Assembly: GCA_035602395.1 (NCBI GenBank)
Contig: DATNMH010000037.1
Span: forward strand, 1,378-65,377
From: Candidatus Acidiferrum sp.
Lineage (GTDB): Bacteria > Chloroflexota > Dormibacteria > CF-121
Length of the DNA: 64,000 nucleotides
Direction of reading: 5' to 3'
The translations under genes and the position numbers were made by a program. The notes below the pieces were generated by a model that had not been told where the DNA came from, made no database searches, and was given only the letters and a program-made list of their open reading frames with translations. Within the stretch, counting starts at the first letter, position 1. Each line of letters starts with the position of its first letter. This document shows positions 5,380 to 29,922 of the stretch, in pieces.

Positions 5380-5474
5380 ACGCGAGCCGCGCCGAGGCCT
5401 CGCCCCACGCGAGCCGCGCTTCAGTGCGATGCGAGCGTTTGAGAGGTTAGTGCGATGCGAGCGTTAGAGGCGTT
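5375..5474. repeat. Tandemly duplicated repeat modules Y (x2) and Z (x2); same family as 36270-36316
   Basis: Module Y is ggcccacgcgagccgcgc (5375-5392) and gccccacgcgagccgcgc (5402-5419). Module Z is agtgcgatgcgagcgtttgagaggtt (5423-5448) and agtgcgatgcgagcgttagaggcgtt (5449-5474). The last copy includes the thiolase stop codon and its last codons. Confidence 0.8.
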
Positions 5475-10547: not shown

Positions 10548-10551
10548 CGCG

Positions 10552-12501
10552 CTAGACCTGGGCTCCCGCGTCACTGGTGGCCGCCCGCCAGGCCTTGGGT
10601 GAGGCAATGCCGCCTTCGAGCGCCCGCGGTCCGATCAGCCGCGCGATCTGGTCCTCGTCGAGAACTTCTTCCTGCAGCAGGGCCGCGGCCAGGGTATCGA
10701 GCTTGGCTCGGTTCGCGGTCAGGATGCTCTCCGCCGTCTGGTAACCCTCGGTGAGCATGCGGGTCACTTCCTCGTCGATGATCGCGGCCGTGCGCTGGCT
10801 GATGTGTGGGCTGCCGGCGAGCTCACGACCGAGGAACACGGCCTGCGGCGAGTCGTCGAAGGAGAACAGCCCCATCTTCTGGCTCATGCCCCAGCTCACC
10901 ACCATGTGCCGCGCCAGTTCGGTCGCGGTCTCGAGGTCGTTCTGCGCGCCGGTGGTGATCGAGCCGAGCCCCAGCTGTTCGGCCGCTCGCCCGCCGAGCG
11001 CCATCGCGATCCGCGCCTCGAGATATTCCTGCGAGAGGTTGTGCCGGTCGTCGGTCGGAATCGACTGGGTGACGCCCAGCGCCATGCCGCGCGGCACGAT
11101 CGTGATCTTATGCACCGGATCCGATTGCGGTTGGTACCAGGCGACCAGCGCGTGACCGGACTCGTGGTAGGCGATCACGCGGCGCTCCGCTTCGCTCAGG
11201 TAGATCTTGCGCTCGGAGCCAAGGACCACCCGGTCGAATGACTCCTCGAAATCCTCCATCGCCACCGTCGTCCGGTTGGTGCGCGACGCGTGCAGTGCGG
11301 CTTCGTTGACGAGGTTGGCGAGGTCGGCGCCCACCAGGCCCGGGGTCGAGCGGGCGATGATCTCGAGGTCGACATCGGGATCCAGCGGCACGCTGCGCGT
11401 GTGCACTTTCAAAATCGCGGCGCGGCCGCGGCGGTCGGGCCGGTCGACCACGACGCGCCGGTCGAAGCGGCCGGGACGGAGCAATGCGGGGTCGAGGACA
11501 TCGGCGCGGTTGGACGCGGCAACCACCACCACGGCCTCGCGCTGATCGAAGCCGTCCATCTCGACCAGCAACTGATTCAAGGTCTGCTCGCGCTCGTCGT
11601 TGCCACCACCGAGACCGGCGCCGCGCTGGCGTCCGACGGCATCGAGCTCGTCGACGAAGATCACCGAGGGCGAGTGCTTCTTTGCATCTTCGAAGAGGCT
11701 GCGGACGCGGGAGGCGCCCACGCCGACGAACATCTCGACAAATTCCGACGCCGAAATACTGAAGAAGGGCACGCCGGCCTCACCCGCGATAGCGCGGGCG
11801 AGCAGCGTCTTGCCGGTGCCGGGTGGACCAATCAGTAAGACGCCCTTCGGCATGCGGCCGCCCAGCTTCTGAAACTTCCCGGGATCGCGTAAGAAATCGA
11901 CCATCTCCTGCAGCTCGAACTGGGCCTGCTCTACCCCGGCGACATCGTGAAAGGTCGTCTTCGGGGTGCTCGGGTCCTGGAGGCGGGCGCGGCTGCGGCC
12001 GAAGCTGAAGATGCCCTGCGCCGCCTGGCCCGATCGCCGCACGAACCAGATCCAGATCGCGATGAGGACGAGGAACGGGAGCAGGCCGAACAATAGGGTG
12101 CCGATGCCGCCGGTGTCCGTCTTGACGTAGGTCGTGACATGGTTGGCCGTCAGGGCCGGAAAGAACGTGGGATCGGTCAACCCGACGTTGTCGGGGACGG
12201 TCGCGGTGAACTGGGTGTTGGTGACGCCATTGTTGGCAAACGCGACCTTGAGGTCACCCTGGGCCGACTGGCCCTGGATGGTGATGTCGGCGACATTGCC
12301 CTCCTCGACCTGGGTCTTCAGCTCCGAGTAGCTCAGGTCGACGCGCGCCGGTCCGCCCAATTTGCTGACGAACGGCGCCGTCAGGACCACCAGGTACAGG
12401 CTCAGGCCGGCCAGCAGGGCCAGGCGAAGCCACGACCCGGACTGCCGTGGAGTCTTGGGCGCCTGCGGGGGCGGCTTCTGGTCGGGCCGGAATTGGGCCA
12501 T
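10552..12501 (-). CDS. ftsH: ATP-dependent zinc metalloprotease FtsH
   Basis: Two N-terminal TM segments, AAA+ Walker [12 protein letters not shown], Walker [10 protein letters not shown], an SRH region, and the zinc site [10 protein letters not shown]. Confidence 0.97.
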
Positions 12502-13061: not shown

Positions 13062-14321
13062 CTAGGCCGCCGCCGGCAGCGCCCGGGTATCGTACGGAAC
13101 CACGGACGCGATCCCCGGGATGCGGGCAAAGGCGGCCCAGATCAGGATGGGGGCGGCGCCCGCCACCACCACGACGATGCGGGCAAGCAGCATCTGGTTC
13201 ATCGGCGCCACGAGCAGCAGGAAGCAGCCGATGCTCAGCACCCGCCCGATTCCCAGGCACAGCTCCTGGTGGACGATGTAGTCGTAACGCATGGTCGCCG
13301 GCGCGGGATCCCGGTCGATGACCTGCAGCGCCACCGGAGCCAGCGCATTCCCGTGGAGGGGGCCACCGATCGCGCGCAGCAAGCCGAAGCCGACGATCGC
13401 CCAGGCCGTCAGGTATAGCGGCAATAAGAAGGTGGAGAGCACCAGCAGCGAGCCCCCAACCAGGGCGCACGCGATCCGGTGCCTCGGTTTCATGAATGCC
13501 GCCAGCCCGAGGCTGATCCCGACCCCCAGCAGACCCATCAAGCCGTTGAAGTTCCCCACCTGCTGCTCGTTCTTGAGCACGAGGAACATCAGAATCGTCA
13601 GCACCAATCCGATCAAGCTCCCGGTGAAGCCATCGGCGAGCCGGGCGCGGGTCACCCAGCGCCAGTCCGGATTTCGTCGCGCCAGCGTGGCCACCCGACG
13701 CAGCGACAGGCGCTGGCGCGCGGATGACGGCAAGCGACCGGCCAGCACCATGGCGGCCATCAGGACCACGGCCGACAGCGCGAAGACCAATTGATAGCCG
13801 CGGTACGTCCCACCCACGCGCGTCCCCGCCACGATGATCGCCCCCGCCGCCGGCGGGAGGGTGGCGGTCAGGAACAAGCTCGCCGTTGCCTGCGCCCCGA
13901 AATACCGGTCGCGGTCTCGGTCCGACGTGGTGTCGTAGGTGACCAGGTGAAAGCCCGACCAGTAGAAGCCTTCCGCGACACCTCGGAGAAGGCCCAGCAG
14001 CACGACCCAGTGGGGGGCGTCCTTCCCCAGCATCAGGATCACGAGGTACGAGCAGCCACAGCCGAAGAGGCCGAGCCGGATCGAGGCGCCGGCGCCGATT
14101 CCCCGCCAGACCAACCCGTTGGCGACGAAGGCGGCGGGAATCATGAGCGCGCACAACCCGCTGTAGAGGGCGATCGGCGCCAGGTCGTGGCTGGCCCGCC
14201 AGAGAAAGATCGACAGGAAGGCGCCGGCCAGCAGGTTGGCCGCCGTGTAGGCGCCGTGAACCAGCACCATGGTGCTGGCGCGCCGGTCCAGCCCGCCCGA
14301 TAACACCCTCGGCCGAAACAC
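13062..14321 (-). CDS. MFS-type transporter (12-TM membrane protein)
   Basis: 419-aa hydrophobic ORF with about 12 helices and short basic loops (e.g. GRLPSSARQRLSLRRV in the central loop). The overlapping 570-aa ORF (12673-14385) is Arg/Pro/Gly-rich and rejected. The start could instead be the ATG at 14270. Confidence 0.65.
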   Translation of the reverse strand: MFRPRVLSGGLDRRASTMVLVHGAYTAANLLAGAFLSIFLWRASHDLAPIALYSGLCALMIPAAFVANGLVWRGIGAGASIRLGLFGCGCSYLVILMLGKDAPHWVVLLGLLRGVAEGFYWSGFHLVTYDTTSDRDRDRYFGAQATASLFLTATLPPAAGAIIVAGTRVGGTYRGYQLVFALSAVVLMAAMVLAGRLPSSARQRLSLRRVATLARRNPDWRWVTRARLADGFTGSLIGLVLTILMFLVLKNEQQVGNFNGLMGLLGVGISLGLAAFMKPRHRIACALVGGSLLVLSTFLLPLYLTAWAIVGFGLLRAIGGPLHGNALAPVALQVIDRDPAPATMRYDYIVHQELCLGIGRVLSIGCFLLLVAPMNQMLLARIVVVVAGAAPILIWAAFARIPGIASVVPYDTRALPAAA

Positions 14322-14595: not shown

Positions 14596-16086
14596 ATGCC
14601 GCTGCCGGCGGCCGCGCGTGAGTTGCTGGCGTCGCTCCAGCAGGGAGCGATCTCGGCGTCCGCCTACGATACCGCCTTCGTCTCCCGCCTGCGCCAGCCG
14701 GACGATCCCAAGGCGATGGCGTACCCGCAAACGCTGGGCTGGATCCTGCGCAGCCAGAACGCCGACGGCAGCTTTGGCACCACGCTCCCGATCCCGAAAG
14801 ACAAGCTAGTCTCGACCCTGAGCGCCCTGGTCGCGCTCGCCGACCTGCCGCAGCACCTCCAGGACGCGGTCGTCCATCGGGCGCGGACGAAGGCGCTGCG
14901 CTTCGTCTACGAGGATACCGGCAATTGGCAGACCGGCCCGGACATGGCGGGATTCGAACTCGTTCTCCCCGCCTTGCTGGACGAGGCCAAGGTCCGCGGA
15001 CTTCCGCTCCCCTACGAGCGCTTCATGGGGATCTCCGCCCAGCGCGACGCCAAGATCGGCCACATCCCGCCGCGACTCATCTACAACGTCAAAACGCCCT
15101 TGCTCCACTCGCTGGAGTACCTGGGCAACCGGCTCGATGTCGAGGCGGCCCGCGCGCAGCTTTCCCCCAATGGCTCCTTTGCCAACTCGCCCTCGGCCAC
15201 GGCGTATTTCCTGCTCAAGACGCGCGACGAACAGGCGAACGAGTATCTCGCCCTGCTGCTGCGCAACCGGGGCGACGGCAGCATTCCGACGGTGGCGCCC
15301 TTCGAAGTCTTCGAGATCGCCTGGGTCCTCTCCAACCTCGCGCGGGCCGACCACCGTCCCGCCGAAGCGTCACCACTGCTGCGCTACCTCGCCCAGTCGC
15401 TCACCGACGACGGGGTCGGCGTTTCACGGGAGGGTCTTCGGGCCGACGCCGACGACACGGCGCTCACCCTCAGCGTCCTGCACCGCTACGGGTACCCGAT
15501 CTCGGCGGGCCCGCTCCGGCCGTTCGAAGGCGTGAACTTTTTCTTCACCTTCCCGCTCGAGCGGGATGCCTCCGTCACCGCCAACGCCCACGTCCTCGAG
15601 GTGCTCCAGGTCGTACCGCCCTTCCCCCGCCAACATGTGATCGCGCAGAAAGTCGTCAAGTACCTGCGTGATGCGCGCGTAGACGGCGACCACTGGGTCG
15701 ACAAGTGGCATGGTTCCCCCTTCTATGCCACCGCCCACGCCGTCTTCGCGCTCACCGCGTCGGCACCCGACGCCTGCGCGAAGGCCTTCACCTGGCTGCG
15801 CGACAGTCAGCGCGAGGACGGCTCGTGGGGCTGGTTCTCGCGCGGGACCCCCGAAGAGACCGCCTATGCGGTCCAGGCCCTGATGCTCGCCCCAGCCGAG
15901 TTCCGGGACGGGTTGAAGCAACCGTTCGAACGGGCGGCGGCCTACCTGAATGAAACCGAGGGAGAGCCCGTCATCCCTATGTGGGTCGGCAAGACGCTCT
16001 ACGGGCCAACCCAGGTCGTCCGGTCGGCGGTCGTGTCCGCGCGAATGATGCTGGGCAGGAGCGAACATGCTAGATCGGCGAATTAA
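14596..16086 (+). CDS. Class II (DxDD) diterpene cyclase, copalyl-diphosphate-synthase-like
   Basis: 496 aa with SAYDTAF near the N-terminus, the QW-like repeats QNADGSFG and QREDGSWGWF, and DADDTA at codons 284-289 (nt 15445-15462). The size fits bacterial CPS-type enzymes rather than squalene-hopene cyclases. Confidence 0.8.
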   Translation: MPLPAAARELLASLQQGAISASAYDTAFVSRLRQPDDPKAMAYPQTLGWILRSQNADGSFGTTLPIPKDKLVSTLSALVALADLPQHLQDAVVHRARTKALRFVYEDTGNWQTGPDMAGFELVLPALLDEAKVRGLPLPYERFMGISAQRDAKIGHIPPRLIYNVKTPLLHSLEYLGNRLDVEAARAQLSPNGSFANSPSATAYFLLKTRDEQANEYLALLLRNRGDGSIPTVAPFEVFEIAWVLSNLARADHRPAEASPLLRYLAQSLTDDGVGVSREGLRADADDTALTLSVLHRYGYPISAGPLRPFEGVNFFFTFPLERDASVTANAHVLEVLQVVPPFPRQHVIAQKVVKYLRDARVDGDHWVDKWHGSPFYATAHAVFALTASAPDACAKAFTWLRDSQREDGSWGWFSRGTPEETAYAVQALMLAPAEFRDGLKQPFERAAAYLNETEGEPVIPMWVGKTLYGPTQVVRSAVVSARMMLGRSEHARSAN

Positions 16087-16975
16087 CAAACTCAAGGAGA
16101 ACCTGCTGGCGCAGGGCGACGAGCGCGCGGTCATCCGCCATCTCGTCGATGCCAACCCGCGCGGCGACGACATGCTGGGTGAGGTTTGCCGCGCCGCCGT
16201 CCTCCTCCACCCCAGCGCCAGCTTCGAGCAGGCGCTGACGCTTGCCCGCACCATGGCCTACATCGTCTACATCGACGACTACCTGGAAGAAGAACATCCC
16301 GAGCTCGACCTCGCCGATTACCGGCGAGTCTGCCAGAACTTCCTGCTCTGGCCCAACCGCGACCTCAGCCAGATGCCCCTGGTCAACGCCACCGTCACGC
16401 GCAAGATCGAGGAGCAGTTCCGCGAGGACGAAGTCCCCGAGGAATGGACGGCGATGCGGCGGTTGGTCTGGGAGAAGTCGATCTGGACCATGCTCCAGGA
16501 GAACCACTGGCTGAAGCACAAGGAGCGCGTCACGCTCGACGCCTACCTGGCCAACGGCATGTATAGCAGTTCCTTCCCCGTCGTCCAGGTCTCGATCCTG
16601 GCCTTTTCCTACCAGGATGTGTCGCAGGAGCTCAAGAACCGGATCTTCGGGCACATCTGCCAGGCGGCGCGCGTAGTGCGGCTGGCCAACGACCTGCGCA
16701 CGCACGAGCGCGAGGCGGCCCAGGGGCGCTTTAACTCCGTCGACCTGATCTTCGGCGCACCGGGCGAGCGCACCCTAGAGAGCGCGCGCGTCGCCGTGCA
16801 CCATCTGATGGAGGAAGAGTTCGAACAGCTCAAGAAAGCGATCGCGCGCGAGCGCCGCACCGGCATCACCCAGCAATTCTTGAGCCACTTGATCGACAGC
16901 ACCCAGGTGCTCCTCGACTTCTACGAAGTCCCGCGCGCCAAGCCTCGCTCGGACCGCCTCTTGAGGGCGGGGTAG
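16067..16975 (+). CDS. Class I terpene (diterpene) synthase
   Basis: 302 aa with IDDYLEE (nt 16274-16288, a DDxxD-type motif ending in Glu) and NDLRTHERE (nt 16688-16714, NSE/DTE triad) about 138 residues later. It overlaps the class II gene by 20 nt. Confidence 0.7.
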   Translation: MLDRRINKLKENLLAQGDERAVIRHLVDANPRGDDMLGEVCRAAVLLHPSASFEQALTLARTMAYIVYIDDYLEEEHPELDLADYRRVCQNFLLWPNRDLSQMPLVNATVTRKIEEQFREDEVPEEWTAMRRLVWEKSIWTMLQENHWLKHKERVTLDAYLANGMYSSSFPVVQVSILAFSYQDVSQELKNRIFGHICQAARVVRLANDLRTHEREAAQGRFNSVDLIFGAPGERTLESARVAVHHLMEEEFEQLKKAIARERRTGITQQFLSHLIDSTQVLLDFYEVPRAKPRSDRLLRAG

Positions 16976-16984
16976 GTCGAAACC

Positions 16985-19408
16985 ATGAGCAGCGCCATCA
17001 ACCTCAAGCTGGGCGCCCGTCAGCCGGCACAGCCGGGGAAACCAGATGCCTCAGCGATGGAGATGGAGCGCCGCATCATCTGGGTCCGCTGGCTCGCGAT
17101 TCTCGTCTCCCTCGGCGCCCTCCCCTTTCTGTCAACCAGTCTGAATCGGCAATCGCTCGTGACCCTGGCGGCCTTGATCGGCCTCGGCGCGATCTACAAC
17201 CTGACGCTGCTCGTCATCATCCTTCCGCGCAAGCCAGGGTGGCTGACCAGCGGCTACATCTCGGCGATCGGCGACACCCTGCTCGTCACCGGCGGCGTTG
17301 CCGTCACGGGCGGCCTGGACTCGCCCTTCTTCCTCGCCTATTTCGTGGTGACCGTCACCACCGCGGTGCGCTTCGGCGGTCTGGCCGCCATCGTCGCCGT
17401 CCTTACGATCGCCTTGAGCTATACGGCCGTCGTCTACTACGACAACACGGTCGCGGGCACGTCGCTCACCCTGAACGCCCTCACCAACCTGGCGATGCGC
17501 ACCGGCTTCGTCGCCATCACCGGCATCTTCGTTGGCTTCGTCGGCGACCGCGCCCGGCGCGCCGAGCAAGCGCTGGAGGAAGAGTTGCAGCGGGCGCACG
17601 CCTCGTTGTCCGAGGTGACCGTCGAGCTCAACCGCGACCTCGAGTTCGAGCAGACCTGCCTGCTCGCCGCCGAGAAAGGCCGGCTGCTGCTCAACGCCGA
17701 TGCCTTCTTGCTCCAGGTCCAGATGCCGCCCCTGATCGGACAGGACGAGTCGGCGCCCCCCGCCTCGTCGCTCTACATCGACTGGAACCCCGAGCTCAAA
17801 GCCGAGTACGCGGGCGTCGACATTACCGGAGCGCGGCTTTCGCTGACGCCGGCGATGGGCGAACAGGTCATCCCGCTCAGCGACCCGAACATCGTGCTAC
17901 CCGATAATCCCAAACCGCTGCCGGCCGGGCTCTGGTACCGCGTGCCGGTCTTCCACGGGGCGCGGGCGATCGCGGACATGATCGTCGGCTTCCAGAACCG
18001 TATCGAACCGCTTCGCCAAACCGAGCAGGAGCTGATGTTGACCTTCGCCGAGCGCGCGGGCATCGCGATGCGCAACGCGCACGCGCTCGACCAGGCACAA
18101 AAACTCTCGGTCACTGACTCGGTCACCGGGCTGCCGAACCACCGCTATTTCCACACCAGGTTCGACGAGGAGCTCGAGAGCACCAAGGAGACCGGCGGGT
18201 CGATCACGGTCATGATGATCGACCTCGACCGCTTCAAGGTCTACAACGACAGCTTCGGCCACGCCGCCGGTGACGTCGCACTCAAAGCGGCGGCGCGCAC
18301 CATCTCGTCGACGATGCGCCGCGAGGACACGGTCACCCGATACGGCGGCGAGGAGTTCGTGGCCATCCTTCCGGGGGTCGACATCCAGACCGCGCCGATT
18401 CGGGCGCAGGAGATTTGCGACACCCTCGCCAAGGTCTTCATGTACAACCCCAAGACCATCTTCGCGCCGCTGACGGCCTCGGTTGGCTGGGCGACCTATC
18501 CCGTCGACGCCAAGAACCGCGACGAGCTGCTGAACCGAGCCGACCTCGCCATGTACATGGCGAAGAAGCGTGGCCGCAACTGCATCTGCGGCGCCTGCGA
18601 ACTGGAGAGCGTCGCCGCGCTCGACTCGGTCTTGAGCGAGGTGGTGGCCCAGCTGGCGAGCGCCGACACGGTCGGGCCGGGCATGGTCGCGACCCTCGAA
18701 AAGCGCCTCGGCCAGATCGCCAACTCCTCTCACCTCGAAGAACTCGCCGAAGGCATGCTGTCGCCGAACAGCGAAGCGACGCTGGAGGCCCTCAACGCGC
18801 TGGCGGCCTCGATCGACGCCAAGGACCCGTACACCAGCGGCCATTCGCAGTCGGTCGCCAAGCTCGCCGAAGACCTGGGCGACATGCTGCAGCTGTCGGC
18901 GGCGCATAAGAACCAGTTGCGCCTCGCCGCCATCCTCCACGACGTGGGCAAGATCGGCGTGGTCGACAAGGTGCTGCTCAAGGAGGGCAAGCTCGACGAA
19001 GACGAGAAGCTGATCATGCGCATGCACCCCATCCTGGGGGCGCGCATCCTGCAGCCGATCAAAGCCTTCCGCCAGATCCTTAACGTCGTGCTGCACCACC
19101 ACGAGTGGTACGACGGGAGTGGCTATCCGGACGGGCTTGCGGGCCAGAACATCCCGCTGCACGCGCGCATCGTGTCGGTCTGCGACGCCTACCACGCGAT
19201 GACGTCCACCCGGCCCTACCGGCAGCGGCGCACGCCGGACTTCGCGCTGGCCCAACTCGAGGCGGGCAAGGGCACGCAGTTCGACCCGATCATCGTCGAC
19301 TACTTCGTCCAGATGATGCGCAAGCGCCAGGCGGAAAACCCGGACGCTCTCGAAGCTGACGTGCACGACGAACACCCAACACCGCCTGATGTCGAGGCGG
19401 CGAGTTAG
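16985..19408 (+). CDS. Membrane-anchored GGDEF diguanylate cyclase fused to an HD-GYP phosphodiesterase
   Basis: 807 aa. The N-terminal ~200 aa contain 5-6 hydrophobic helices, followed by a central sensor-sized region. The GGDEF domain carries RYGGEEF with RRED (RxxD I-site) five residues upstream. The C-terminal HD-GYP has HDVGKIGV and HHEWYDGSGYPDGL. Confidence 0.9.
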   Translation: MSSAINLKLGARQPAQPGKPDASAMEMERRIIWVRWLAILVSLGALPFLSTSLNRQSLVTLAALIGLGAIYNLTLLVIILPRKPGWLTSGYISAIGDTLLVTGGVAVTGGLDSPFFLAYFVVTVTTAVRFGGLAAIVAVLTIALSYTAVVYYDNTVAGTSLTLNALTNLAMRTGFVAITGIFVGFVGDRARRAEQALEEELQRAHASLSEVTVELNRDLEFEQTCLLAAEKGRLLLNADAFLLQVQMPPLIGQDESAPPASSLYIDWNPELKAEYAGVDITGARLSLTPAMGEQVIPLSDPNIVLPDNPKPLPAGLWYRVPVFHGARAIADMIVGFQNRIEPLRQTEQELMLTFAERAGIAMRNAHALDQAQKLSVTDSVTGLPNHRYFHTRFDEELESTKETGGSITVMMIDLDRFKVYNDSFGHAAGDVALKAAARTISSTMRREDTVTRYGGEEFVAILPGVDIQTAPIRAQEICDTLAKVFMYNPKTIFAPLTASVGWATYPVDAKNRDELLNRADLAMYMAKKRGRNCICGACELESVAALDSVLSEVVAQLASADTVGPGMVATLEKRLGQIANSSHLEELAEGMLSPNSEATLEALNALAASIDAKDPYTSGHSQSVAKLAEDLGDMLQLSAAHKNQLRLAAILHDVGKIGVVDKVLLKEGKLDEDEKLIMRMHPILGARILQPIKAFRQILNVVLHHHEWYDGSGYPDGLAGQNIPLHARIVSVCDAYHAMTSTRPYRQRRTPDFALAQLEAGKGTQFDPIIVDYFVQMMRKRQAENPDALEADVHDEHPTPPDVEAAS

Positions 19409-19411
19409 GCG

Positions 19412-20461
19412 ATGGCCCTCGACGCCAACGGTCACCCGGTTTCGAAGATCGCCCAGCGCAAGCTCGAGCACCTGCGTTTGTCGCTGGAAGCCTCGGTGCA
19501 GTCGACGCGCAGCGCCGGCTTCGAGCGCTACGCCTTCAGCCACGAGGCGCTCCCCGAGCTTGACCTGGACGCCATCGATATGACCACCAGTTTCCTGGGC
19601 AAGCCCCTCAAATTGCCGTTCCTGATCTCGAGTATGACTGGCGGCGCCCACGCGGCCGGCGACATCAACCGCCGCCTGGCGTTGGTCGCGCAATCGGTCG
19701 GGATCGCCTTCGGCGTCGGTTCGCAGCGGGCGGGGATCACCCACAAAGACCTGCGCGCCACCTACCAGGTGCGCAGCGTCGCCCCCGACGTCCTGCTGTT
19801 CGCCAACCTGGGTGCGGTTCAGCTGAACTACGGCATGCGCCAGGAGCAGGCGCTCGAAGCGATCGAGATGATCGGCGCGGACGCGCTGGTGCTGCATCTC
19901 AATCCGCTGCAAGAGGCGCTCCAGCCCGAAGGCGACCACAACTTCAAGGGACTGATCGAGAAGATCGGTAGCCTCTGCCGCGAACTCCCCGTTCCGGTGA
20001 TCGTCAAGGAGGTCGGCTGCGGCATCTCAGAGCGTACCGCGGGGCTGCTGGCGGCCGCCGGTGTGGCCGCCATCGACGTCGCCGGTCTCGGCGGCACCAG
20101 CTTCGCCAGGGTGGAGGCCTTTCGCCGTGAGCGTCCCGAGGAAGTCGAGCTGGCGCTTGCCTTTTCGGAGTGGGGCATCCCCACGTCGGAGGCGCTGATC
20201 GCGACCCACCGCGCCGCCCCCCAGCTGCCGCTGATCGCGAGCGGCGGCCTCAAGCATGGGCTCGACGCCGCCAAGGCGCTCGGACTCGGTGCCGACCTGA
20301 CCGGCTTCGCGCACGCCGTGCTCGCCGCCGCCTCGGAAGGCGAAGAATCCGTTCGCCACTTGCTCGACGGCTTCGCCTGGCAGCTACGGGTCGCCATGTT
20401 CTGCGCGGGCGCCCCCACGATCGCGGCACTCAAGAGGACTCCACCCGTCGAAGTGGGATGA
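19412..20461 (+). CDS. fni: Isopentenyl-diphosphate delta-isomerase, type 2 (FMN-dependent)
   Basis: 349 aa with FLISSMTGGAHAAG, VIVKEVGCGIS and LIASGGLKHGLD, the characteristic IDI-2 TIM-barrel motifs. It starts 3 nt after the preceding gene. Confidence 0.9.
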   Translation: MALDANGHPVSKIAQRKLEHLRLSLEASVQSTRSAGFERYAFSHEALPELDLDAIDMTTSFLGKPLKLPFLISSMTGGAHAAGDINRRLALVAQSVGIAFGVGSQRAGITHKDLRATYQVRSVAPDVLLFANLGAVQLNYGMRQEQALEAIEMIGADALVLHLNPLQEALQPEGDHNFKGLIEKIGSLCRELPVPVIVKEVGCGISERTAGLLAAAGVAAIDVAGLGGTSFARVEAFRRERPEEVELALAFSEWGIPTSEALIATHRAAPQLPLIASGGLKHGLDAAKALGLGADLTGFAHAVLAAASEGEESVRHLLDGFAWQLRVAMFCAGAPTIAALKRTPPVEVG

Positions 20462-21498
20462 AGACCAAGACCTTCGCCAGCCGCACCGACCGGCTGCAGG
20501 CGATGAACCAGGCGCTGGACCGCGAGCTGTCGCGCCTATCGCAGCGCGTCGGGTCCAGCCAGAGCTCGCTGCTGACGGAGATGGTGCAGTACCACCTCGG
20601 CCTGCGGAAGGCGGGCGAGCGTCCCGGAAAGCGCCTGCGGGCGAACATCGCGTTGCTCACCTGCGAGGCCTTTGGCAAGCGCTACGCCGATGCCTTGTGG
20701 GCGGCGGTGGCGGTCGAACTCGCACACAACTTCTCGCTGGTCTTCGACGACGTCCAGGATCATGACGAGCTCCGCCGCGGACGGCCCTCCGTCTGGAAAG
20801 TCTGGGGCCCGGGCCAGGCGATCAACGCCGGCGCGGCGCTGGAGGCACTCGTCACCCGGGCGGTGGTCGACCTGTTGCCGGCGCGCTACGCGGACCGCAC
20901 GCGGCCGGCGCTCCTCTTGCTCACCGATTCGATGCTCGCGCTCTGCCGCGGGCAGGTGCTCGACCTGCAGTTCGAGCAGCGGGTCGATGTCTCCGTCGAC
21001 GAGTACATGGAGATGGTGGGGCTGAAGACCGCCACGCTCTTCGACTGCGCCGCGCGGCTGGGCGGACTCTCCGCGGGCGTCGGCGACGCGGCATTGGACA
21101 AAGCGGGCAAGTTCGGCTACCACCTCGGGATTGCATTCCAGGTGATCGACGACATCCTCGGCGTTTGGGGGTCGACCAACCAGACCGGCAAACCGATCGG
21201 TAGCGACCTGAAGAACGGCAAGAAGACGCTGCCGACGCTGGTCGCGCTCAAGGGCGGCGCCGCCGGCAACCGGCGGGTGCTGCGATCGCTGCTGACGCGC
21301 GCGACCTTCAGCGCAACCGAGATGGAGACCGCCCGCGCCATCATCACCCAGTCGAGCGCGCAGGGGATCTGCCGCCGCCAGGCGGCGGAGCACCTCGCCG
21401 AGGCGCGCCTTCAACTGTTCGGCATGACCGACCGTCCAAACTGGGCCGTCCGGGCGCTGGCCGAGATGGTCACCACGCTGGAGTCGGGACTGGTCTAG
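20458..21498 (+). CDS. Polyprenyl diphosphate synthase, probably GGPP synthase
   Basis: The ATG at 20458 overlaps the idi stop (ATGA). First Asp-rich motif LVFDDVQDHDELRRGRP and second FQVIDDILG. GGPP specificity is inferred from context only. The longer track ORF from 20170 is a different upstream frame extension and is rejected. Confidence 0.85.
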   Translation: MKTKTFASRTDRLQAMNQALDRELSRLSQRVGSSQSSLLTEMVQYHLGLRKAGERPGKRLRANIALLTCEAFGKRYADALWAAVAVELAHNFSLVFDDVQDHDELRRGRPSVWKVWGPGQAINAGAALEALVTRAVVDLLPARYADRTRPALLLLTDSMLALCRGQVLDLQFEQRVDVSVDEYMEMVGLKTATLFDCAARLGGLSAGVGDAALDKAGKFGYHLGIAFQVIDDILGVWGSTNQTGKPIGSDLKNGKKTLPTLVALKGGAAGNRRVLRSLLTRATFSATEMETARAIITQSSAQGICRRQAAEHLAEARLQLFGMTDRPNWAVRALAEMVTTLESGLV

Positions 21499-21561: not shown

Positions 21562-22326
21562 ATGGGGTCAACGGCACTGCCGTCGCGCACCCCGAGGGTC
21601 GTGACATATCTCATTTGGATCGTGGTCCTACTGCTCGCCGTTGGCCAGCCGGGCACAAAAGCCCCGGTGATGGCCCCCAGCGAGGTGCTTGGCGTGCACG
21701 CCGGAACGGATAATCAGGGCTTGCAGGGCAAAGTCTACGTGGCCCTGGGCGACAGCATCAGCGCCGGCCGTTTTGCCACGGCCCAGGACGGCACCTTTCC
21801 CGCACTGGTCGCGGACAAGGTGGGTATGACGCTCGACCTGGTGGCGCGCAGCGGGGCGAAAGCGGCCTGGGGGTTGCCGCAGCTGGGCGCCGTCGAGGCG
21901 GCCCACCCGGCGCTCGTCACCATCGAGCTCGGCACCAACGACGTCGGCTTCAACACGCCGCTCGACACCTTTGCCGCGCAGTACGAGGCGATCGTCAGTG
22001 GCGTCTCCGGCGCGCAGACCCGAGTCCTCTGCATCGGCAGCTGGCTGCCGTCTGACGTGATCGATGCCATCATCGCGCAGACGTGCGAACGACATGGCGG
22101 GACCTACGTCACGCTGAACGGCTTCTATGCCGTTAACGCCTTCCACGGTACCGACGGCGGCTCGAGCTACCTCGGCCGCACCGACTGGTTCCACCCCGGC
22201 GACCAGGGCCACGCGGCGATCGCCGCGGCCGTGCTCTCGGCACTCGGCGCCGGGCCCGCGCCGGTCGTCGGCCCCTTGCCGTCGGTCTCGCAGATCCCCG
22301 ACGTGATCCGCACCCGACCGCAATAG
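21562..22326 (+). CDS. Secreted SGNH/GDSL-family hydrolase
   Basis: Signal/anchor (VVTYLIWIVVLLLAVG), block I VALGDSISAG, block III GTNDV, and block V WFHPGDQGH. A GGAGG SD lies upstream of the ATG. Confidence 0.8.
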   Translation: MGSTALPSRTPRVVTYLIWIVVLLLAVGQPGTKAPVMAPSEVLGVHAGTDNQGLQGKVYVALGDSISAGRFATAQDGTFPALVADKVGMTLDLVARSGAKAAWGLPQLGAVEAAHPALVTIELGTNDVGFNTPLDTFAAQYEAIVSGVSGAQTRVLCIGSWLPSDVIDAIIAQTCERHGGTYVTLNGFYAVNAFHGTDGGSSYLGRTDWFHPGDQGHAAIAAAVLSALGAGPAPVVGPLPSVSQIPDVIRTRPQ

Positions 22327-22359: not shown

Positions 22360-23985
22360 TTAGGGTTCGAGCACCTCGCCAATCTTCAGCGCCAGATGCA
22401 GCGAGAGCCGGACTTCGGCATTGCGCAGGTCGACCCCGAGAAGGTCCTCGATCCGCCCGAGGCGATAGAGCACGGTGTTGCGATGCAAATGGAGGCGCTC
22501 CGCCGCGTCGGTCGGGCTCCCGTTGGTCGCCAGGTAGGCGGCGAGCGTCTGGAGCAGCACGCCGGCGCGATCTTTGGTCCGCAGCCTCGCCAGCGCGTCG
22601 TCGCGGAAGGCCCGCATCTCGGGCAGCGGCTGCAGCGCGTAGAGCAGGCGATAGAGGCCGAGGTCGTTGAAGGCGGTCGCGCTGTCCGGTCCAAAAAGAC
22701 GCCGGCCCATGGTCAGGGCTTGCTCCGCCTCCCGGGCGCCCGCCGCCACCTCGCTCGCGCCCGAGCGAACGCCGCCGTAGCCGACCGCCACCGGCGTATT
22801 GGCGGAGACGCGGGCGGCGCGGTGTAAGTGATCCACCACCGATCGCGCGTCGGGAGCCCGCCGCCCGGCAAGACTCACGAGCGCCAGCGTCGCCTCGCCG
22901 CGCTCCCGCACCAGCGCGCTGAGCCGCATGGTGCCCAGCTGACGTTCCCAGGCGGCCCGGATCCTGGGCGCGAGCCCAGGTTCCACCGGCTCGGCGGCGA
23001 TCACCAGGTAATTGGCATCCACGTCGAAGCCCTTGCGCTTGGCCCGTTCGCGAGCCGCCTGGTGGGTGCCCGGTCGGCCGGCGGTCAGCACGTCGAGCAG
23101 CTCCTCCTCCACCTCGTCGCGCGCGTCGCGTGCCGCGCGCGCGCGAACCAGCTCGATGGCGCACGCGTGCGCCGCGCGCCCGACCGCCAGCCGGTGCATC
23201 TCCCCCAGCTCACCGTCCGAGCCCAGCAACGACAGGAAGCCGGCGATACTTCCCTGCACCAGGATGGGCGCGATCAACCGAGTCTGGCCGTGCGCCAGCG
23301 GTCGTAACGCAACCGGCGGATCGAAGGCGCTGAGGGGAACCTCACGCAACCACTCTTCGAGCGCAGGACGCTCCTGCGCGATCAGCGCGGCCGCGCTCTC
23401 TGCGAGCCGGCCGGCGCCGACATAGTCGAGACCCGAGTCGCGCTCGAGCACCACCGGCACGCCGGTGAGCTCGTGGAGCCGGGCCAGCAGCGCCGGGAGC
23501 CCGCGTCCTGCCAGCGCCAGCTCGCTCAGCTGTCGGTGCAGGTCCTGGGCGCGCTCGTGAAGCTCGGCCCGCTGGTCGACGATGTAGCGCAACACCTGCT
23601 GTTCGACCTGGTCGAGCGGCAAGGCGGCCGGCAGCGCGAACAGCGGTAAGGCGTGCGCCTCCGCGACCCGACGCGCCTCGGGTGAGACCCGCCCGAGCAC
23701 CGCGGCCCCGGCGACCCCCTGGCCGGCGAGCGATTCCAGTAGGCGGGCGAGCGTCAGGCGCGAATCGACTGCCGTCAGCACCTGGGGATCGATCAGGAGC
23801 AGCTCGCCCCCGCGCAGCGGCGTGAAGGCCGGCTGCCGGGCGCGCAACGTCGTGCACCAGACGACCTCGCGACGAGACCCTGCACTCCCCGCCACCAGTT
23901 GCGTGCCCTGTGGTAGGGCGCCGCGCCACACATCGTCGACGGTGACGTGAGGGTGGGCCGGGGCGACGGGTGTCTTCGAGCCCAT
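22360..23985 (-). CDS. PucR/CdaR-family transcriptional regulator
   Basis: 541 aa with a C-terminal PucR-type HTH (AAERLHLHRNTVLYRLGRIEDLLGVDL) and an N-terminal purine-catabolism-regulator-like region. Confidence 0.85.
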   Translation of the reverse strand: MGSKTPVAPAHPHVTVDDVWRGALPQGTQLVAGSAGSRREVVWCTTLRARQPAFTPLRGGELLLIDPQVLTAVDSRLTLARLLESLAGQGVAGAAVLGRVSPEARRVAEAHALPLFALPAALPLDQVEQQVLRYIVDQRAELHERAQDLHRQLSELALAGRGLPALLARLHELTGVPVVLERDSGLDYVGAGRLAESAAALIAQERPALEEWLREVPLSAFDPPVALRPLAHGQTRLIAPILVQGSIAGFLSLLGSDGELGEMHRLAVGRAAHACAIELVRARAARDARDEVEEELLDVLTAGRPGTHQAARERAKRKGFDVDANYLVIAAEPVEPGLAPRIRAAWERQLGTMRLSALVRERGEATLALVSLAGRRAPDARSVVDHLHRAARVSANTPVAVGYGGVRSGASEVAAGAREAEQALTMGRRLFGPDSATAFNDLGLYRLLYALQPLPEMRAFRDDALARLRTKDRAGVLLQTLAAYLATNGSPTDAAERLHLHRNTVLYRLGRIEDLLGVDLRNAEVRLSLHLALKIGEVLEP

Positions 23986-29339: not shown

Positions 29340-29922
29340 CCGGATTGTTCGCCGGAACCGGGATCCCGCATTCGCCCAGCAACCGCGTCAGCAGGCGCAT
29401 CGGCATCCCGACGACGTTGTCATACGGCCCGCGGATCGATGCGATCAGGCGCCGGCCCTTGCCCTGTATAGCGTAGGCACCGGCTTTATCCTGCGGTTCA
29501 CCGGTTCGGACGTAGGCGGCGATCTCGCTCGACGAAAGTTCACGCATAGTGACATGCGTCCGCGAAATGCCTTGCGCTCGCCGGCCAGAGCGCCCATCGA
29601 TCACCTGGACCGCGGTGTAGACCTGGTGCGTCTTCCCCGATAGCGCGCGCAAAAAGGCGGCGGCCTCCGCGCGATCCTTTGGCTTTCCGAAGATTCGCCC
29701 GCGCAAGACGACCTCGGTGTCGGCAGCCACGACGACTCGGCCTGCCGCCCTCGCGGCGACCGCCTCGGCCTTCGCTTTCGCCGCCCAGGCGACAAAGCGC
29801 ACCGGCCCGAGCGGCACCGGCGGCCGCTCATCGATGCCGGGCGCCAGCGCGCGAAACGGGATGCCGGACCGCGTGAGAATGTCCATCCGTCGCGCCGAGG
29901 TCGACGCCAGCAGGATGATCAA
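29296..29922 (-). CDS. maf: Maf-like nucleoside-triphosphate pyrophosphatase
   Basis: (L)IILLASTSARRMDILTRSGIPF...VVAADTEVVL...KAGAYAIQG. The TTG start at 29922 overlaps the upstream stop (TTGA). The first ~95 aa of the track ORF overlap the upstream membrane gene and are rejected. Confidence 0.85.
   Translation of the reverse strand: MIILLASTSARRMDILTRSGIPFRALAPGIDERPPVPLGPVRFVAWAAKAKAEAVAARAAGRVVVAADTEVVLRGRIFGKPKDRAEAAAFLRALSGKTHQVYTAVQVIDGRSGRRAQGISRTHVTMRELSSSEIAAYVRTGEPQDKAGAYAIQGKGRRLIASIRGPYDNVVGMPMRLLTRLLGECGIPVPANNPDEMQHTSQHRRRHR

Follow-up and report, generated by a model that had tools for sequence, protein, structure and literature searches.

Introduction

In Xanthomonas, the RpfF signal synthase is accompanied by RpfC, a polytopic sensor kinase, and by RpfG, a REC-HD-GYP protein. 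In the ComQXPA system of Bacillus, ComQ, which is related to polyprenyl synthases, is encoded beside ComP, a polytopic histidine kinase that senses an isoprenylated signal. The genes for the RpfF signal synthases of Burkholderia adjoin the gene for their receptor, the GGDEF-EAL protein RpfR (PMC6361424). The six-helix region of PilS binds the pilin PilA within the membrane via its transmembrane (TM) segments (PMC6058289). The sole documented case found of a terpene synthase operon with nucleotide-second-messenger genes is that of the cnb genes (Crp/Fnr-type, cyclic-nucleotide-binding), which flank the 2-methylisoborneol and geosmin synthase genes of cyanobacteria and actinomycetes (PMC3072421). 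Lastly, I4EKS1 of Nitrolancea hollandica is a class II enzyme reported to be a clerodane diphosphate synthase, partly characterised (PMC12164552); the reports on I4EKS1 and on Mycobacterium tuberculosis Rv3377c mention no associated sensor or c-di-GMP gene.

The locus described here lies in a 64,000-nucleotide stretch of DNA from Candidatus Acidiferrum sp. (contig DATNMH010000037.1), the whole of which is hereafter called the window. It holds the gene of a 6TM-GAF-GGDEF-HD-GYP signalling protein inside a terpene operon, and no published description of such a 6TM-terpene cyclase sensor system was found in the literature. By analogy with the DSF/Rpf systems, the gene for a lipophilic-molecule synthase would adjoin that of its receptor, with c-di-GMP turnover as the read-out. 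The TM-histidine kinase (HK) and REC-GAF-HD-GYP proteins of one relative (L134) form an RpfC/RpfG-like pair, and the window protein resembles a fused, one-component version; adjacency of candidate receptor and synthase genes across lineages is found in the 6TM family as well. Unlike those systems, the present one would involve a putative cyclised diterpenoid and terpene cyclases instead of a cis-2 fatty acid and a crotonase; in sequence, its 6TM domain is related neither to the input of RpfC nor to the PAS domain of RpfR, and GGDEF and HD-GYP domains are joined in one membrane protein. With PilS (PF25323, 6TM_PilS) and KdpD (PF13493, DUF4118) it shares a six-helix N-terminal membrane input with minimal outside loops, whereas its genomic partner is a terpene cyclase and that of PilS is a pilin, with PilR. 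The cnb proteins are soluble cNMP-binding, transcription-factor-like effectors, which neither sense at the membrane nor synthesise or degrade a messenger, their messenger is cAMP or cGMP instead of c-di-GMP, and the products of their operons are volatile C11/C12 terpenoids. ComQXPA likewise sets an isoprenoid-handling enzyme gene beside a polytopic membrane sensor gene; its signal, however, is a prenylated peptide and not a free terpenoid, its sensor domain is another one, and it has no c-di-GMP output.

Results

The first gene of the operon (positions 14,596 to 16,086, + strand) encodes a class II diterpene cyclase (cII) whose DxDD motif reads DADDTA. Its best solved relative is the M. tuberculosis halimadienyl-PP synthase Rv3377c (PDB 6VPT, E 2.5e-63), and its further PDB matches are ent- and syn-CPP synthases (E 1e-41 to 1e-44 for the ent-CPP synthases 3PYA and 5BP8). 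The class II assignment rests on these characterised homologues, on the DxDD motif and on D284 and D286, which are invariant in a five-sequence cII alignment. Overlapping it by 20 nt is the gene (16,067 to 16,975, +) for a class I terpene synthase of the type that utilises cII products (cI). It matches Terpene_syn_C_2 (PF19086, 61.2 bits) and Terpene_synth_C (PF03936, 54.4 bits), and its translation contains the metal-binding motifs DDYLE and NDLRTHERE; its PDB matches, to the bacterial proteins Sat1646 and Stt4548, are weak. The ORF of the signalling protein (16,985 to 19,408, +; 807 aa, ATG start) begins 9 nt after the cI stop at 16,975, and its own stop at 19,408 lies 3 nt before the start of idi at 19,412, gaps that agree with those given in an earlier note on this DNA. 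The idi gene (19,412 to 20,461, +) codes for a type-2 (FMN) isopentenyl-diphosphate isomerase (TIGR02151, 407 bits for a cut-off of 281). It overlaps by 4 nt a gene (20,458 to 21,498, +) for a polyprenyl diphosphate synthase, probably a geranylgeranyl diphosphate synthase (GGPPS; Pfam polyprenyl_synt, 214 bits), for which none of the best NCBIfam models, GGPP synthase IdsB among them, reached its equivalog cut-off.

The earlier note took co-transcription to be very likely, and the tight packing of the genes speaks for it, as does the outcome of a search that found neither a promoter-like nor an intergenic terminator-like site between the operon genes: each of the six terminator-like sites observed (4.2 ± 1.7 expected) lies either in a coding sequence or ahead of cII. 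Upstream of the operon, neither a riboswitch nor any other Rfam element was found, and no c-di-GMP effector was identified near it.

Conservation in the 807-aa protein was assessed on an alignment of 36 homologues (33–96% identity); orthologues are 95–64% identical to it, and the next full-length group 33–37%. The GGDEF domain (18,110 to 18,580, +; residues 376–532, Pfam GGDEF E 5e-43) scores 147.1 bits against PF00990 (cut-off 23.8) and 161.2 bits against TIGR00254 (cut-off 37.4). Its active site is intact, with RYGGEEF at residue 452, and an RxxD I-site, the hallmark of product-inhibited diguanylate cyclases, is present as RRED (445–448) five residues before GGEEF. D413, D415, K418, N421, D422, R452, Y453, G455, E457 and F458 do not vary in either clade of the alignment, and conservation is 90% or more at R445, R446, D448 and E456. 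Judged by model match, active site and I-site, this is a predicted diguanylate cyclase. The HD-GYP domain (18,803 to 19,288, +; residues 607–768, Pfam HD_5 E 2.1e-38; PF13487, 132.2 bits for a cut-off of 27.2) carries HDVGKIGV at residue 652 and HHEWYDGSGYPDGL (HHEWYDGSGYP) at residue 705. Its metal-ligand set is complete, H620, H652, D653, K656, H681, H705, H706, E707, D710, G711, G713, P715 and D734 being invariant in the 36 sequences, and model and motifs together predict a c-di-GMP phosphodiesterase. The GGDEF and HD-GYP motifs that the earlier note had listed are thus all borne out by the translation.

That note had further described five to six N-terminal TM helices and a central region of the size of a sensor. 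A polytopic N-terminus is indeed present, and the exact number of helices is six in the AlphaFold (AF2) model of the protein (pLDDT 79.7): residues 20–49, 55–88, 91–107, 114–130, 132–157 and 163–215, the sixth continuing as a long signalling helix. This 6TM intramembrane input domain with its exit helix (16,985 to 17,629, +; residues 1–215) has cytoplasmic N- and C-termini and stands N-terminal to the signalling outputs; the N-tail and the inside loops are rich in K and R and the outside loops are short. Since these extracytoplasmic loops comprise only 3, 6 and 14 residues, sensing must occur within the membrane or in the cytoplasm. Alignments give the signature ERRxxxxRW ... D97 ... TGGxxSPFxxxYF ... 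RFG. R35, D97 (in the middle of TM3), G109, G110 and S113 are kept in at least 90% of 84 family representatives. The conserved polar TM residues might serve signal transmission instead of ligand binding.

At E ≤ 1e-10 the 6TM family comprises 165 clusters out of 1.84 billion; it is small, essentially undescribed and scarcely covered by Pfam. The 6TM region of the window protein matched no Pfam family even at E ≤ 10. Among nine 6TM relatives scanned, the only recurring families were 6TM_PilS (four of the nine, best E 4e-7) and DUF4118 (three of the nine, best E 3.9e-5), which at E ≤ 1e-4 were matched by two and three, respectively, of the 84 representatives. On sequence resemblance, the domain is akin in kind to 6TM_PilS and DUF4118 without being a demonstrable member of either. 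The outputs found in the 84 full-length representatives are HisKA (56), GGDEF (17), HD-GYP (11), EAL (5) and SpoIIE (2).

The central region is a domain as well (17,645 to 18,112, +; residues 221–376), which has an alpha/beta fold and which AlphaFold and Foldseek identify as a divergent GAF domain: the top Foldseek matches of the 1–376 model are DosS/DosT GAF-A and the PtsP GAF (TM-score 0.62–0.68 on the target, E 6e-5 to 1e-3). Residues 1–375 of the window protein have no match in Pfam; in homologues, GAF_2 reaches 24.3 bits (L124, under the 28.6-bit cut-off) and 36.8 bits (L029, over it). The GAF domain might be the true ligand site, yet the sensor of L036 lacks it, as apparently does the 390-aa sensor of L129.

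The synteny comparison suggested in the earlier note places the 807-aa gene between cI and idi in all 35 Dormibacterota-type loci that hold both (35/35), and no relative was found in which the terpene genes are contiguous and the sensor gene missing, the case that would have spoken against a functional link. This placement is kept while the identity of the sensor half falls to 58%. The sensor half and cII diverge to similar degrees (mean identity 82.7% vs 83.9%, minimum 58% vs 60%), and the output half stays 96.7% identical on average (minimum 89%). Divergence that is faster in TM and GAF regions than in catalytic ones is common and is therefore not specific evidence for co-evolution with a ligand. 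Taken alone, conservation within Dormibacterota is weak evidence, because the whole neighbourhood is syntenic, with MFS, FtsH and Lon genes upstream and PucR, RsfS, Obg and L27/L21 genes downstream.

The coupling extends beyond this lineage. In Thermobaculum-like Chloroflexota, homologues of about 35% identity again follow a cII-cI pair (L005, L006/L007, L024, L062, L126–L128), with unrelated flanks and without idi and GGPPS, and in two further loci the sensor comes directly after cII (L124, where a polyprenyl synthase follows the sensor, and L125, which stops within the sensor gene). Relatives of cII that are 36–44% identical adjoin the same TM domain. Fusions of 6TM to a histidine kinase also adjoin cyclase genes (L036, L033, L129–L131, L132, L029, L135–L137, L138). 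They account for at least six additional arrangements, with REC-GAF-HD-GYP, GGDEF-EAL and REC-GAF-nucleotide cyclase proteins and an OmpR regulator among the downstream partners. In L134, the TM-HK gene is followed by that of the REC-GAF-HD-GYP protein, and in L029 an OmpR-type DNA-binding response regulator is encoded directly upstream of cII and TM-GAF-HK downstream.

In all, the candidate receptor gene stands beside cII or cI in eight of ten TM-family lineages, in more than eight distinct arrangements; the context of nine of these lineages was retrieved regardless of terpene genes, and the tenth (L124/L125) was first met in a TM-based metagenome scan. Of the 72 TM-positive loci, 65 contain cII or cI; in five of the seven that do not, the sequence is truncated at the 5' end of the sensor gene. 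The sensor is found without a nearby terpene gene in two lineages (L133 and L004, where it is 64% identical and flanked by SDR and beta-propeller genes), and conversely some 60 cII loci of Anaerolineae and actinomycetes have no sensor. The constant partner of the cyclases is therefore the N-terminal 6TM domain and not the c-di-GMP enzymes, and the universal partner of that domain is cII rather than cI, coupling to idi and GGPPS being restricted to the Dormibacterota version. The coupling of diterpenoid synthesis to c-di-GMP turnover that was read from the window alone is thus supported, with two refinements. It recurs in distant lineages with unrelated flanks; what is conserved is the link of cII and cI, above all cII, with the 6TM domain, while idi and GGPPS may be missing and the output be swapped for a histidine kinase. 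Such swappable outputs on a constant 6TM input fit the earlier suggestion that the polytopic module is a sensor.

BLAST detects no similarity between the cI proteins of one main clade and those of the other, so that the end products of these clades probably differ; a receptor of the product would then have to recognise a shared scaffold or to co-evolve. The cII of N. hollandica (L025), which is 42% identical and followed by cI, is placed by the cII tree within the clade that is linked to the sensor. The contig stops just past cI, before any sensor position. I4EKS1, from the same organism, may be encoded by the L025 gene.

Discussion

The domain content of the 807-aa protein, its intact catalytic motifs, the operon-like packing and the recurrent adjacency of the TM domain to cII or cI, with swappable outputs, are best explained by an intramembrane receptor dedicated to the diterpenoid, in which sensing of the product sets the balance of diguanylate cyclase and phosphodiesterase; I give this reading about an even chance of being right. 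The protein would be a one-component signalling enzyme whose 6TM input and GAF domain set the GGDEF diguanylate cyclase against the HD-GYP c-di-GMP phosphodiesterase. Idi and GGPPS would supply GGPP, which cII and cI would cyclise to a clerodane- or halimadane-like diterpenoid. Being hydrophobic, this compound would partition into the membrane and be detected there by the 6TM domain, much as PilS senses pilin and RpfC senses DSF, and the signalling helix and the GAF domain would relay the change, switching between c-di-GMP synthesis and hydrolysis. What the ligand is, which way the switch turns and which targets c-di-GMP acts on belong to the conjectural part of this scheme, and known intramembrane-sensing kinases often sense via partner proteins, which counts against direct sensing of a ligand. 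Since a 6TM sensor accompanies cyclase genes in many unrelated bacteria, it is probable that these organisms have a dedicated receptor with which they sense their own terpenoid lipid or control it; as far as can be inferred, the terpenoid may be either the sensed ligand or the regulated output.

The latter case draws on the same adjacency data as product sensing. The 6TM domain would sense the state of the membrane (fluidity, desiccation, envelope stress) and control, via c-di-GMP or a phosphorelay, the expression or activity of the co-encoded diterpenoid pathway, the product of which would remodel or protect the membrane; it would be a regulator dedicated to a hopanoid-like lipid. The OmpR-cII-TM-GAF-HK order of L029 is a classic two-component layout for regulating neighbouring genes, the sensor is purely intramembrane, and the Dormibacterota operon stands amid housekeeping genes (Lon, FtsH, Obg, L21/L27, LeuRS, ValRS), so that it looks like core physiology and not like a mobile secondary-metabolite island. 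However, the fused GGDEF/HD-GYP versions offer no evident route from c-di-GMP to the operon, with neither an Rfam element nor a nearby effector, the sensor half co-diverges with cII, and a generic membrane-state sensor is not expected to stay beside cII through so many rearrangements and swaps of output. I therefore consider control of the pathway by membrane state doubtful, if a serious contender. That the TM domain belongs to an unrelated hitch-hiking c-di-GMP gene, its synteny reflecting close kinship among Dormibacterota, is very improbable and strongly disfavoured: the wholly syntenic Dormibacterota neighbourhood and the 64%-identical homologue outside a terpene context (L004) would fit, yet the adjacency recurs with different flanks, gene orders, strands and outputs and with cII proteins merely 36–44% identical. 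Terpene synthase genes make up some 0.1% of bacterial genes (a rough order-of-magnitude estimate, not a computed value), so that their adjacency to the sensor in eight of ten lineages is not due to chance.

Two further proposals assign the protein a part in the biosynthesis itself. The 6TM domain might tether cII and cI, both soluble, to the membrane or organise them there, forming a metabolon or a site where the hydrophobic product is handed on, or it might act catalytically on the cII product; in either case the signalling domains would report occupancy as a secondary matter. The gaps of 2–13 nt between cI or cII and the sensor in several lineages, which suggest co-translation and similar stoichiometry, would suit such a role, as would the persistence of cII as partner even where no cI is nearby (L124, L125, L029) and the conserved acidic residue D97 inside the membrane. 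But wherever it occurs the 6TM domain is joined to signalling outputs (HK, GGDEF, HD-GYP, EAL, SpoIIE), which marks it as an input domain and not as an enzyme or an anchor; on reading its sequence, Asp-rich prenyl-binding motifs of the UbiA type are absent, and its sole Pfam resemblance is to the TM domains of sensor kinases (6TM_PilS, DUF4118). Such a role is improbable. By analogy with 1-tuberculosinyl-adenosine, the product of Rv3377c and Rv3378c, the GGDEF domain might instead supply c-di-GMP or another guanine nucleotide as acceptor of the diterpenyl group, giving a terpene-nucleotide conjugate. Rv3377c is the nearest relative of cII with a solved structure, and in M. tuberculosis its product becomes linked to adenosine; here, however, the partner is a canonical class I synthase with DDxxE and NSE motifs and not an Rv3378c-type transferase, and in many cyclase-linked relatives histidine kinases replace GGDEF/HD-GYP, so that nucleotide supply cannot be the conserved function. 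This last proposal is hardly credible.

If product sensing is taken a step further, the cyclised diterpenoid could serve Dormibacterota and Chloroflexota as a hormone or autoinducer, an endogenous signal that is carried in the membrane and read by an undescribed receptor family that travels with cII and is wired to c-di-GMP or cNMP by fusion or by phosphorelay. The wiring would run through GGDEF/HD-GYP, REC-HD-GYP or GGDEF-EAL proteins for c-di-GMP and through REC-GAF-cyclase proteins for cNMP. I hold this broader proposal to be plausible, at somewhat less than even odds; if true, it would be the first bacterial signalling system to be described in which a terpenoid ligand has a receptor dedicated to it. 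The roles of most bacterial terpenoids are obscure, and genome mining files terpene synthase loci as secondary-metabolite clusters. The recurrent and evolutionarily robust link between a diterpene cyclase pair and a dedicated membrane sensor, with c-di-GMP, cNMP or a phosphorelay as its output, suggests that the physiological role of the diterpenoid lies in signalling or in homeostasis of the membrane. This link is found in uncultured soil phyla (Dormibacterota, Chloroflexota) that are otherwise little known. To the known input domains of bacterial signal transduction the 6TM domain adds a new one, and it comes with a strong hypothesis on the ligand, something seldom available for sensor domains embedded in the membrane.

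Two flanking genes are uncertain members of the operon unit. The final gene on the same strand, 63 nt past GGPPS, encodes a GDSL-family lipase/acylhydrolase (21,562 to 22,326, +; Lipase_GDSL_2, 76 bits) with an N-terminal hydrophobic segment; its position is kept in Dormibacterota loci, and none was seen in the distant versions. Upstream of cII, a divergently transcribed gene (13,062 to 14,321, − strand) codes for an MFS transporter (Pfam MFS_1). It was not seen among the distant loci with listed called genes; in L001 and L002 it occupies the identical divergent placement, and it is possibly an exporter.

Architecture of the predicted c-di-GMP enzyme

The 807-aa open reading frame at 16985-19408 (+) is a genuine gene with the organisation described in the earlier note. 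Pfam and NCBIfam models assign residues 376-532 to a GGDEF domain (E 5e-43) and residues 607-768 to an HD_5 domain of HD-GYP type (E 2.1e-38), and recognise nothing in residues 1-375. The motifs quoted in that note are present: RRED at 445, RYGGEEF at 452, HDVGKIGV at 652 and HHEWYDGSGYPDGL at 705. In homologues down to 33% identity the active-site residues of the two output domains are fully or almost fully conserved, including D413, D415, K418, N421, D422 and the GGEEF motif in the GGDEF domain, and H620, H652, D653, H681, H705, H706, E707, D710 and D734 in the HD-GYP domain. Judged from sequence, both activities are predicted to be intact.

An AlphaFold model (36 homologues, pLDDT 79.7) shows six transmembrane (TM) helices, at residues 20-49, 55-88, 91-107, 114-130, 132-157 and 163-215, the last of which continues out of the membrane as a long signalling helix. 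Beyond the TM bundle lie, in order, an alpha/beta domain (221-376), the GGDEF domain, a helical linker and the HD-GYP domain. A Foldseek search of the PDB with a separate model of residues 1-376 matched the GAF domains of DosS/DosT (GAF-A) and PtsP (TM-score 0.62-0.68 on the target); it matched the GAF part only, and returned no similar solved structure for the TM bundle. Lysine and arginine residues sit in the N-tail and the inside loops, and the outside loops comprise only 3, 6 and 14 residues. Such short outside loops, with the K/R residues inside, suggest a protein that senses an intramembrane or cytoplasmic signal and has no periplasmic domain.

The sensor gene is tightly packed among diterpene genes

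Names attached to near-identical proteins and contigs place the source organism in Candidatus Dormibacterota. The neighbours assigned to this gene in the earlier note were confirmed by motifs and models. The class II diterpene cyclase (cII, 14596-16086) carries a DxDD motif and has as its best solved relative 6VPT, the halimadienyl-diphosphate synthase Rv3377c of M. tuberculosis (E 2.5e-63). It is followed by the class I terpene synthase (cI, 16067-16975; motifs DDYLE and NDLRTHERE), the sensor gene, the type-2 isopentenyl-diphosphate isomerase gene idi (19412-20461; TIGR02151, 407 bits) and a polyprenyl synthase gene (denoted GGPPS, 20458-21498; Pfam profile match). The cII and cI genes overlap by 20 nt, gaps of 9 nt and 3 nt separate the sensor gene from cI and idi, and idi overlaps GGPPS by 4 nt. 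Terminator-like matches were at background level, with none between the operon genes. A promoter scan, which covers the sigma-70 consensus only and is weak evidence in this phylum, found no sigma-70-like site, and an Rfam scan of the window returned four tRNAs only, with neither a c-di-GMP riboswitch nor another leader upstream of the operon.

Homologous loci were collected from three sources: the contexts of proteins found by look-up, GTDB species genomes searched with a cII alignment (80 loci), and JGI metagenomes searched with the TM-domain alignment A3 (41 loci, mostly close relatives that represent few independent lineages). The components of all loci were mapped by tblastn and HMM. Orthologues of the window protein range from 95% to 64% identity, after which identity jumps to 33-37% for the next full-length homologues. 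The comparison of gene order across relatives proposed in the earlier note gave a uniform result: the sensor gene lies between cI and idi in all 35 Dormibacterota-type loci that hold both genes, cI being directly followed by idi in none of them, and this order persists even where the sensor half of the protein (TM plus GAF) is only 58% identical. Taken alone, Dormibacterota synteny would be weak evidence of coupling, because the entire operon neighbourhood is syntenic across the phylum.

GC content is not anomalous. A recent insertion of the gene was rejected on the strength of this normal GC, of an N-terminus and position kept in 35/35 loci, and of the housekeeping surroundings.

The two halves of the protein evolve differently. 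When the window is compared with L001-L123, the output half, within the Dormibacterota, (GGDEF plus HD-GYP, 18110-19408) is the most conserved part of the operon, with a mean identity of 96.7% and a minimum of 89%, compared with means of 89.7% for idi, 89.1% for GGPPS and 90.1% for cI. The sensor half is the most variable part (mean 82.7%, minimum 58%) and diverges at the pace of cII (mean 83.9%, minimum 60%). Purifying selection of this strength is unusual for an output module, and points to numerous interaction constraints or to a role at the centre of physiology.

The association outlives phylum, flanks and gene order

Decisive evidence for coupling comes from distant loci with unrelated flanks. 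Thermobaculum-like Chloroflexota, together with related MAGs, carry homologues at about 35% identity (L005, L006/L007, L024, L062, L126-L128). At each of these loci the sensor gene lies directly 3' of a cII-cI pair, in surroundings that bear no relation to the Dormibacterota version and hold neither idi nor GGPPS. At locus L125, cII is followed directly by the sensor gene, where the contig ends. Locus L124 runs DUF1284, cII, sensor, polyprenyl synthase, and cI is missing from the series. No class I synthase was found in L124; a 430-aa ORF without a Pfam match, which follows the polyprenyl synthase gene (9860-11152), could encode a non-canonical second-step enzyme. The DUF1284 domain upstream of cII belongs to a 323-aa protein (2971-3942).

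One homologue, at locus L004, departs from this pattern. It is 64% identical to the window protein, of which it is the closest out-group homologue, and lies between an SDR gene and a WD40-like beta-propeller gene on a 4.4-kb contig without any terpene gene. Its output half is 83% and its sensor half 44% identical to that of the window protein, and its setting reflects either recruitment of a paralogue to a different input or break-up of the operon.

MAG names alone are no guide to taxonomic spread, since two odd labels are likely to reflect binning contamination: L020, named 'Candidatus Binatus', holds a complete Dormibacterota-type operon (80-97% protein identity to the window), and L062, named 'Rubrobacter', holds the cII-cI-sensor trio of the Thermobaculum-like group.

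The TM domain is a portable input module

With the TM-domain alignment A2 as query, a word-indexed protein search reached no out-groups and yielded just fragments of close Dormibacterota orthologues; the wider family was gathered with the divergent set A6 as query and with an exhaustive HMM search. The family is small: among 1.84 billion cluster representatives, 1762 proteins pass E<=1e-3, 165 pass E<=1e-10 and 20 pass E<=1e-30. According to Pfam, 84 full-length representatives carry HisKA (56), GGDEF (17), HD-GYP (11), EAL (5) and SpoIIE (2) outputs. Since its outputs are swapped in this way, the TM domain behaves as a classic signal-input module. Five positions are at least 90% conserved across the 84 proteins, namely R35, D97 (in the middle of TM3), G109, G110 and S113 in the window numbering, which was assigned by correspondence with alignments A2 and A7. 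The domain is alike in kind to PilS- and KdpD-type TM sensor domains, without sharing their Pfam membership: 6TM_PilS matches 2/84 and DUF4118 3/84 representatives, and no Pfam model recognises the copy in the window.

The domain, of about 190 aa and with the signature ERRxxxxRW ... D ... TGGxxSPFxxxYF ... RFG, is also found fused to histidine kinases (HK) beside cyclase genes, in several arrangements. Locus L036 has cII, cI, TM-HK, and L138 pairs a TM-HK gene with a convergent cI. Response-regulator (REC) genes accompany the kinase at L129-L131 (cI, cII, TM-HK, REC and a hybrid REC-HATPase-REC protein) and at L132 (frameshifted cI and cII, REC, TM-HK, with a GGDEF-EAL gene near). Locus L033 has cI, cII, TM-GAF-HK and a soluble GAF-GGDEF-HD-GYP protein; a marine MAG (L135-L137) has cII, cI, TM-HK, REC and a REC-GAF-nucleotide cyclase (Guanylate_cyc); and at L134, on a contig cut just upstream of the sensor gene, TM-HK is followed by REC-GAF-HD-GYP in an RpfC/RpfG-like pair. 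Compared with the two-component circuits of L134, L135-L137 and L033, the protein of the window resembles a one-component version made by fusion.

At locus L029 an OmpR-type regulator gene precedes cII, next comes a UbiA prenyltransferase gene on the reverse strand, and TM-GAF-HK follows. A class I synthase was not detected there, and the locus may encode a modified pathway, with an aromatic or lipid acceptor receiving the cII product. The UbiA-family gene lies at 2411-3376 (-), between cII and TM-GAF-HK. Second-messenger partners again lie 3' of kinase-type sensors at L134 (328-3598), L135 (3543-9295) and L033 (11963-15820).

Terpene synthase genes adjoin the sensor gene in eight of ten TM-family lineages. 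Of the 72 TM-positive loci, 65 hold cII or cI, and five of the remaining seven are cut at the sensor gene's 5' end. For nine of the ten lineages the context was fetched blind to terpene genes, the tenth (L124/L125) having first been met in the TM-based metagenome scan; the independent contexts are limited to about a dozen lineages, mostly Chloroflexota-related MAGs. The two lineages without a nearby terpene gene are L004 and L133. Contigs cut just upstream of the sensor gene, as at L003 (P0077) and L134 (P0262), are uninformative on adjacency, and the Nitrolancea contig L025 ends directly after cI. About 60 cII loci of Anaerolineae, Streptomyces and Pseudonocardiaceae hold no TM sensor. A rough neighbour-joining tree of cII, without support values and used for two points only, distributes the sensor-linked cyclases over three lineages and contains a large Anaerolineae clade and an actinomycete clade without a sensor.

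The TM domain is thus a constant partner of these cyclases, and stays linked to cII in the genome across different phyla, flanks, gene orders and output domains. The earlier note had described the c-di-GMP gene as an insert in a terpene operon; its embedding holds in 35/35 loci, but the gene belongs to a conserved cII(-cI)-sensor module and is not an insert. The coupling of terpenoid synthesis to c-di-GMP turnover proposed there gains support, and is sharpened, from the operon-like packing and the recurrent adjacency of TM domain and cII.

Possible function of the module

I infer that the TM domain serves a diterpenoid circuit as its dedicated receptor. The reading I favour, with about an even chance of being right, is that this domain senses the product of the operon: cII and cI would yield a hydrophobic diterpenoid that partitions into the membrane, the 6TM bundle would detect it there, and the signalling helix and GAF domain would then shift the balance of diguanylate cyclase and phosphodiesterase activities. 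There is a precedent for intramembrane detection in PilS, whose TM segments bind pilin inside the membrane (PMC6058289). The diterpenoid probably belongs to the clerodanes or halimadanes, because the closest solved relative of cII is Rv3377c and because the class II enzyme I4EKS1 of Nitrolancea hollandica is a reported clerodane diphosphate synthase (PMC12164552). I4EKS1 is probably the cII of L025, which falls within the sensor-linked clade of the cII tree. In the main rival reading the arrow is reversed: the sensor would read the state of the membrane, and the diterpenoid would be the output under its control, protecting the membrane. Both the order OmpR-cII-sensor at L029 and the housekeeping surroundings of the operon fit this possibility, which I consider less probable than product sensing.

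Recurrent adjacency to the cyclases and swappable output domains make two further explanations much less likely, namely that the TM domain serves as a scaffold or an enzyme, and that the c-di-GMP gene is purely a hitch-hiker. The swappable output also speaks against a supply of nucleotide for a terpene-nucleotide conjugate, as an analogy with 1-TbAd would have it; this idea was rejected because, in addition, cI is a canonical synthase.

The GGDEF, HD-GYP and GAF domains, like the neighbouring enzymes, are ordinary representatives of their families. As an analogy, the closest working likeness of the whole system appears to be DSF Rpf signalling, with a lipid-signal synthase, a membrane receptor and an HD-GYP read-out; DSF synthase genes also adjoin the gene of the c-di-GMP-metabolising receptor RpfR (PMC6361424). 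A literature search, with most subscription journals outside its coverage, found no description of a terpene cyclase linked to a c-di-GMP enzyme, to the present TM sensor or to a histidine kinase. The sole documented terpene operons with second-messenger genes that it found are those for 2-MIB and geosmin, which are flanked by genes for cNMP-binding proteins (PMC3072421); these encode effectors, in contrast to the sensor/enzyme of the window operon. The module would be of a known kind, a signal synthase and receptor with second-messenger output, here with a new input domain and a terpenoid partner.

Other features of the window

Two neighbouring ORFs of about 520 aa at 29919-33046 (-), without a Pfam match at E<=1e-5, lie in the highest-GC part of the window (0.72), where there is a strong AT skew (+0.37 in 30001-32000). 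A PucR/CdaR-family regulator (PucR, GGDEF_2 and HTH_30; 22360-23985 (-)) converges on the end of the operon and keeps the same position in the homologous loci L001 and L002; its GGDEF-like domain is of a degenerate, non-catalytic type. A thiolase (acetyl-CoA acetyltransferase) gene lies 8 kb upstream of the operon, at 5464-6618 (-); together with the type-2 isomerase, it may point to a mevalonate route to isoprenoids in this organism.
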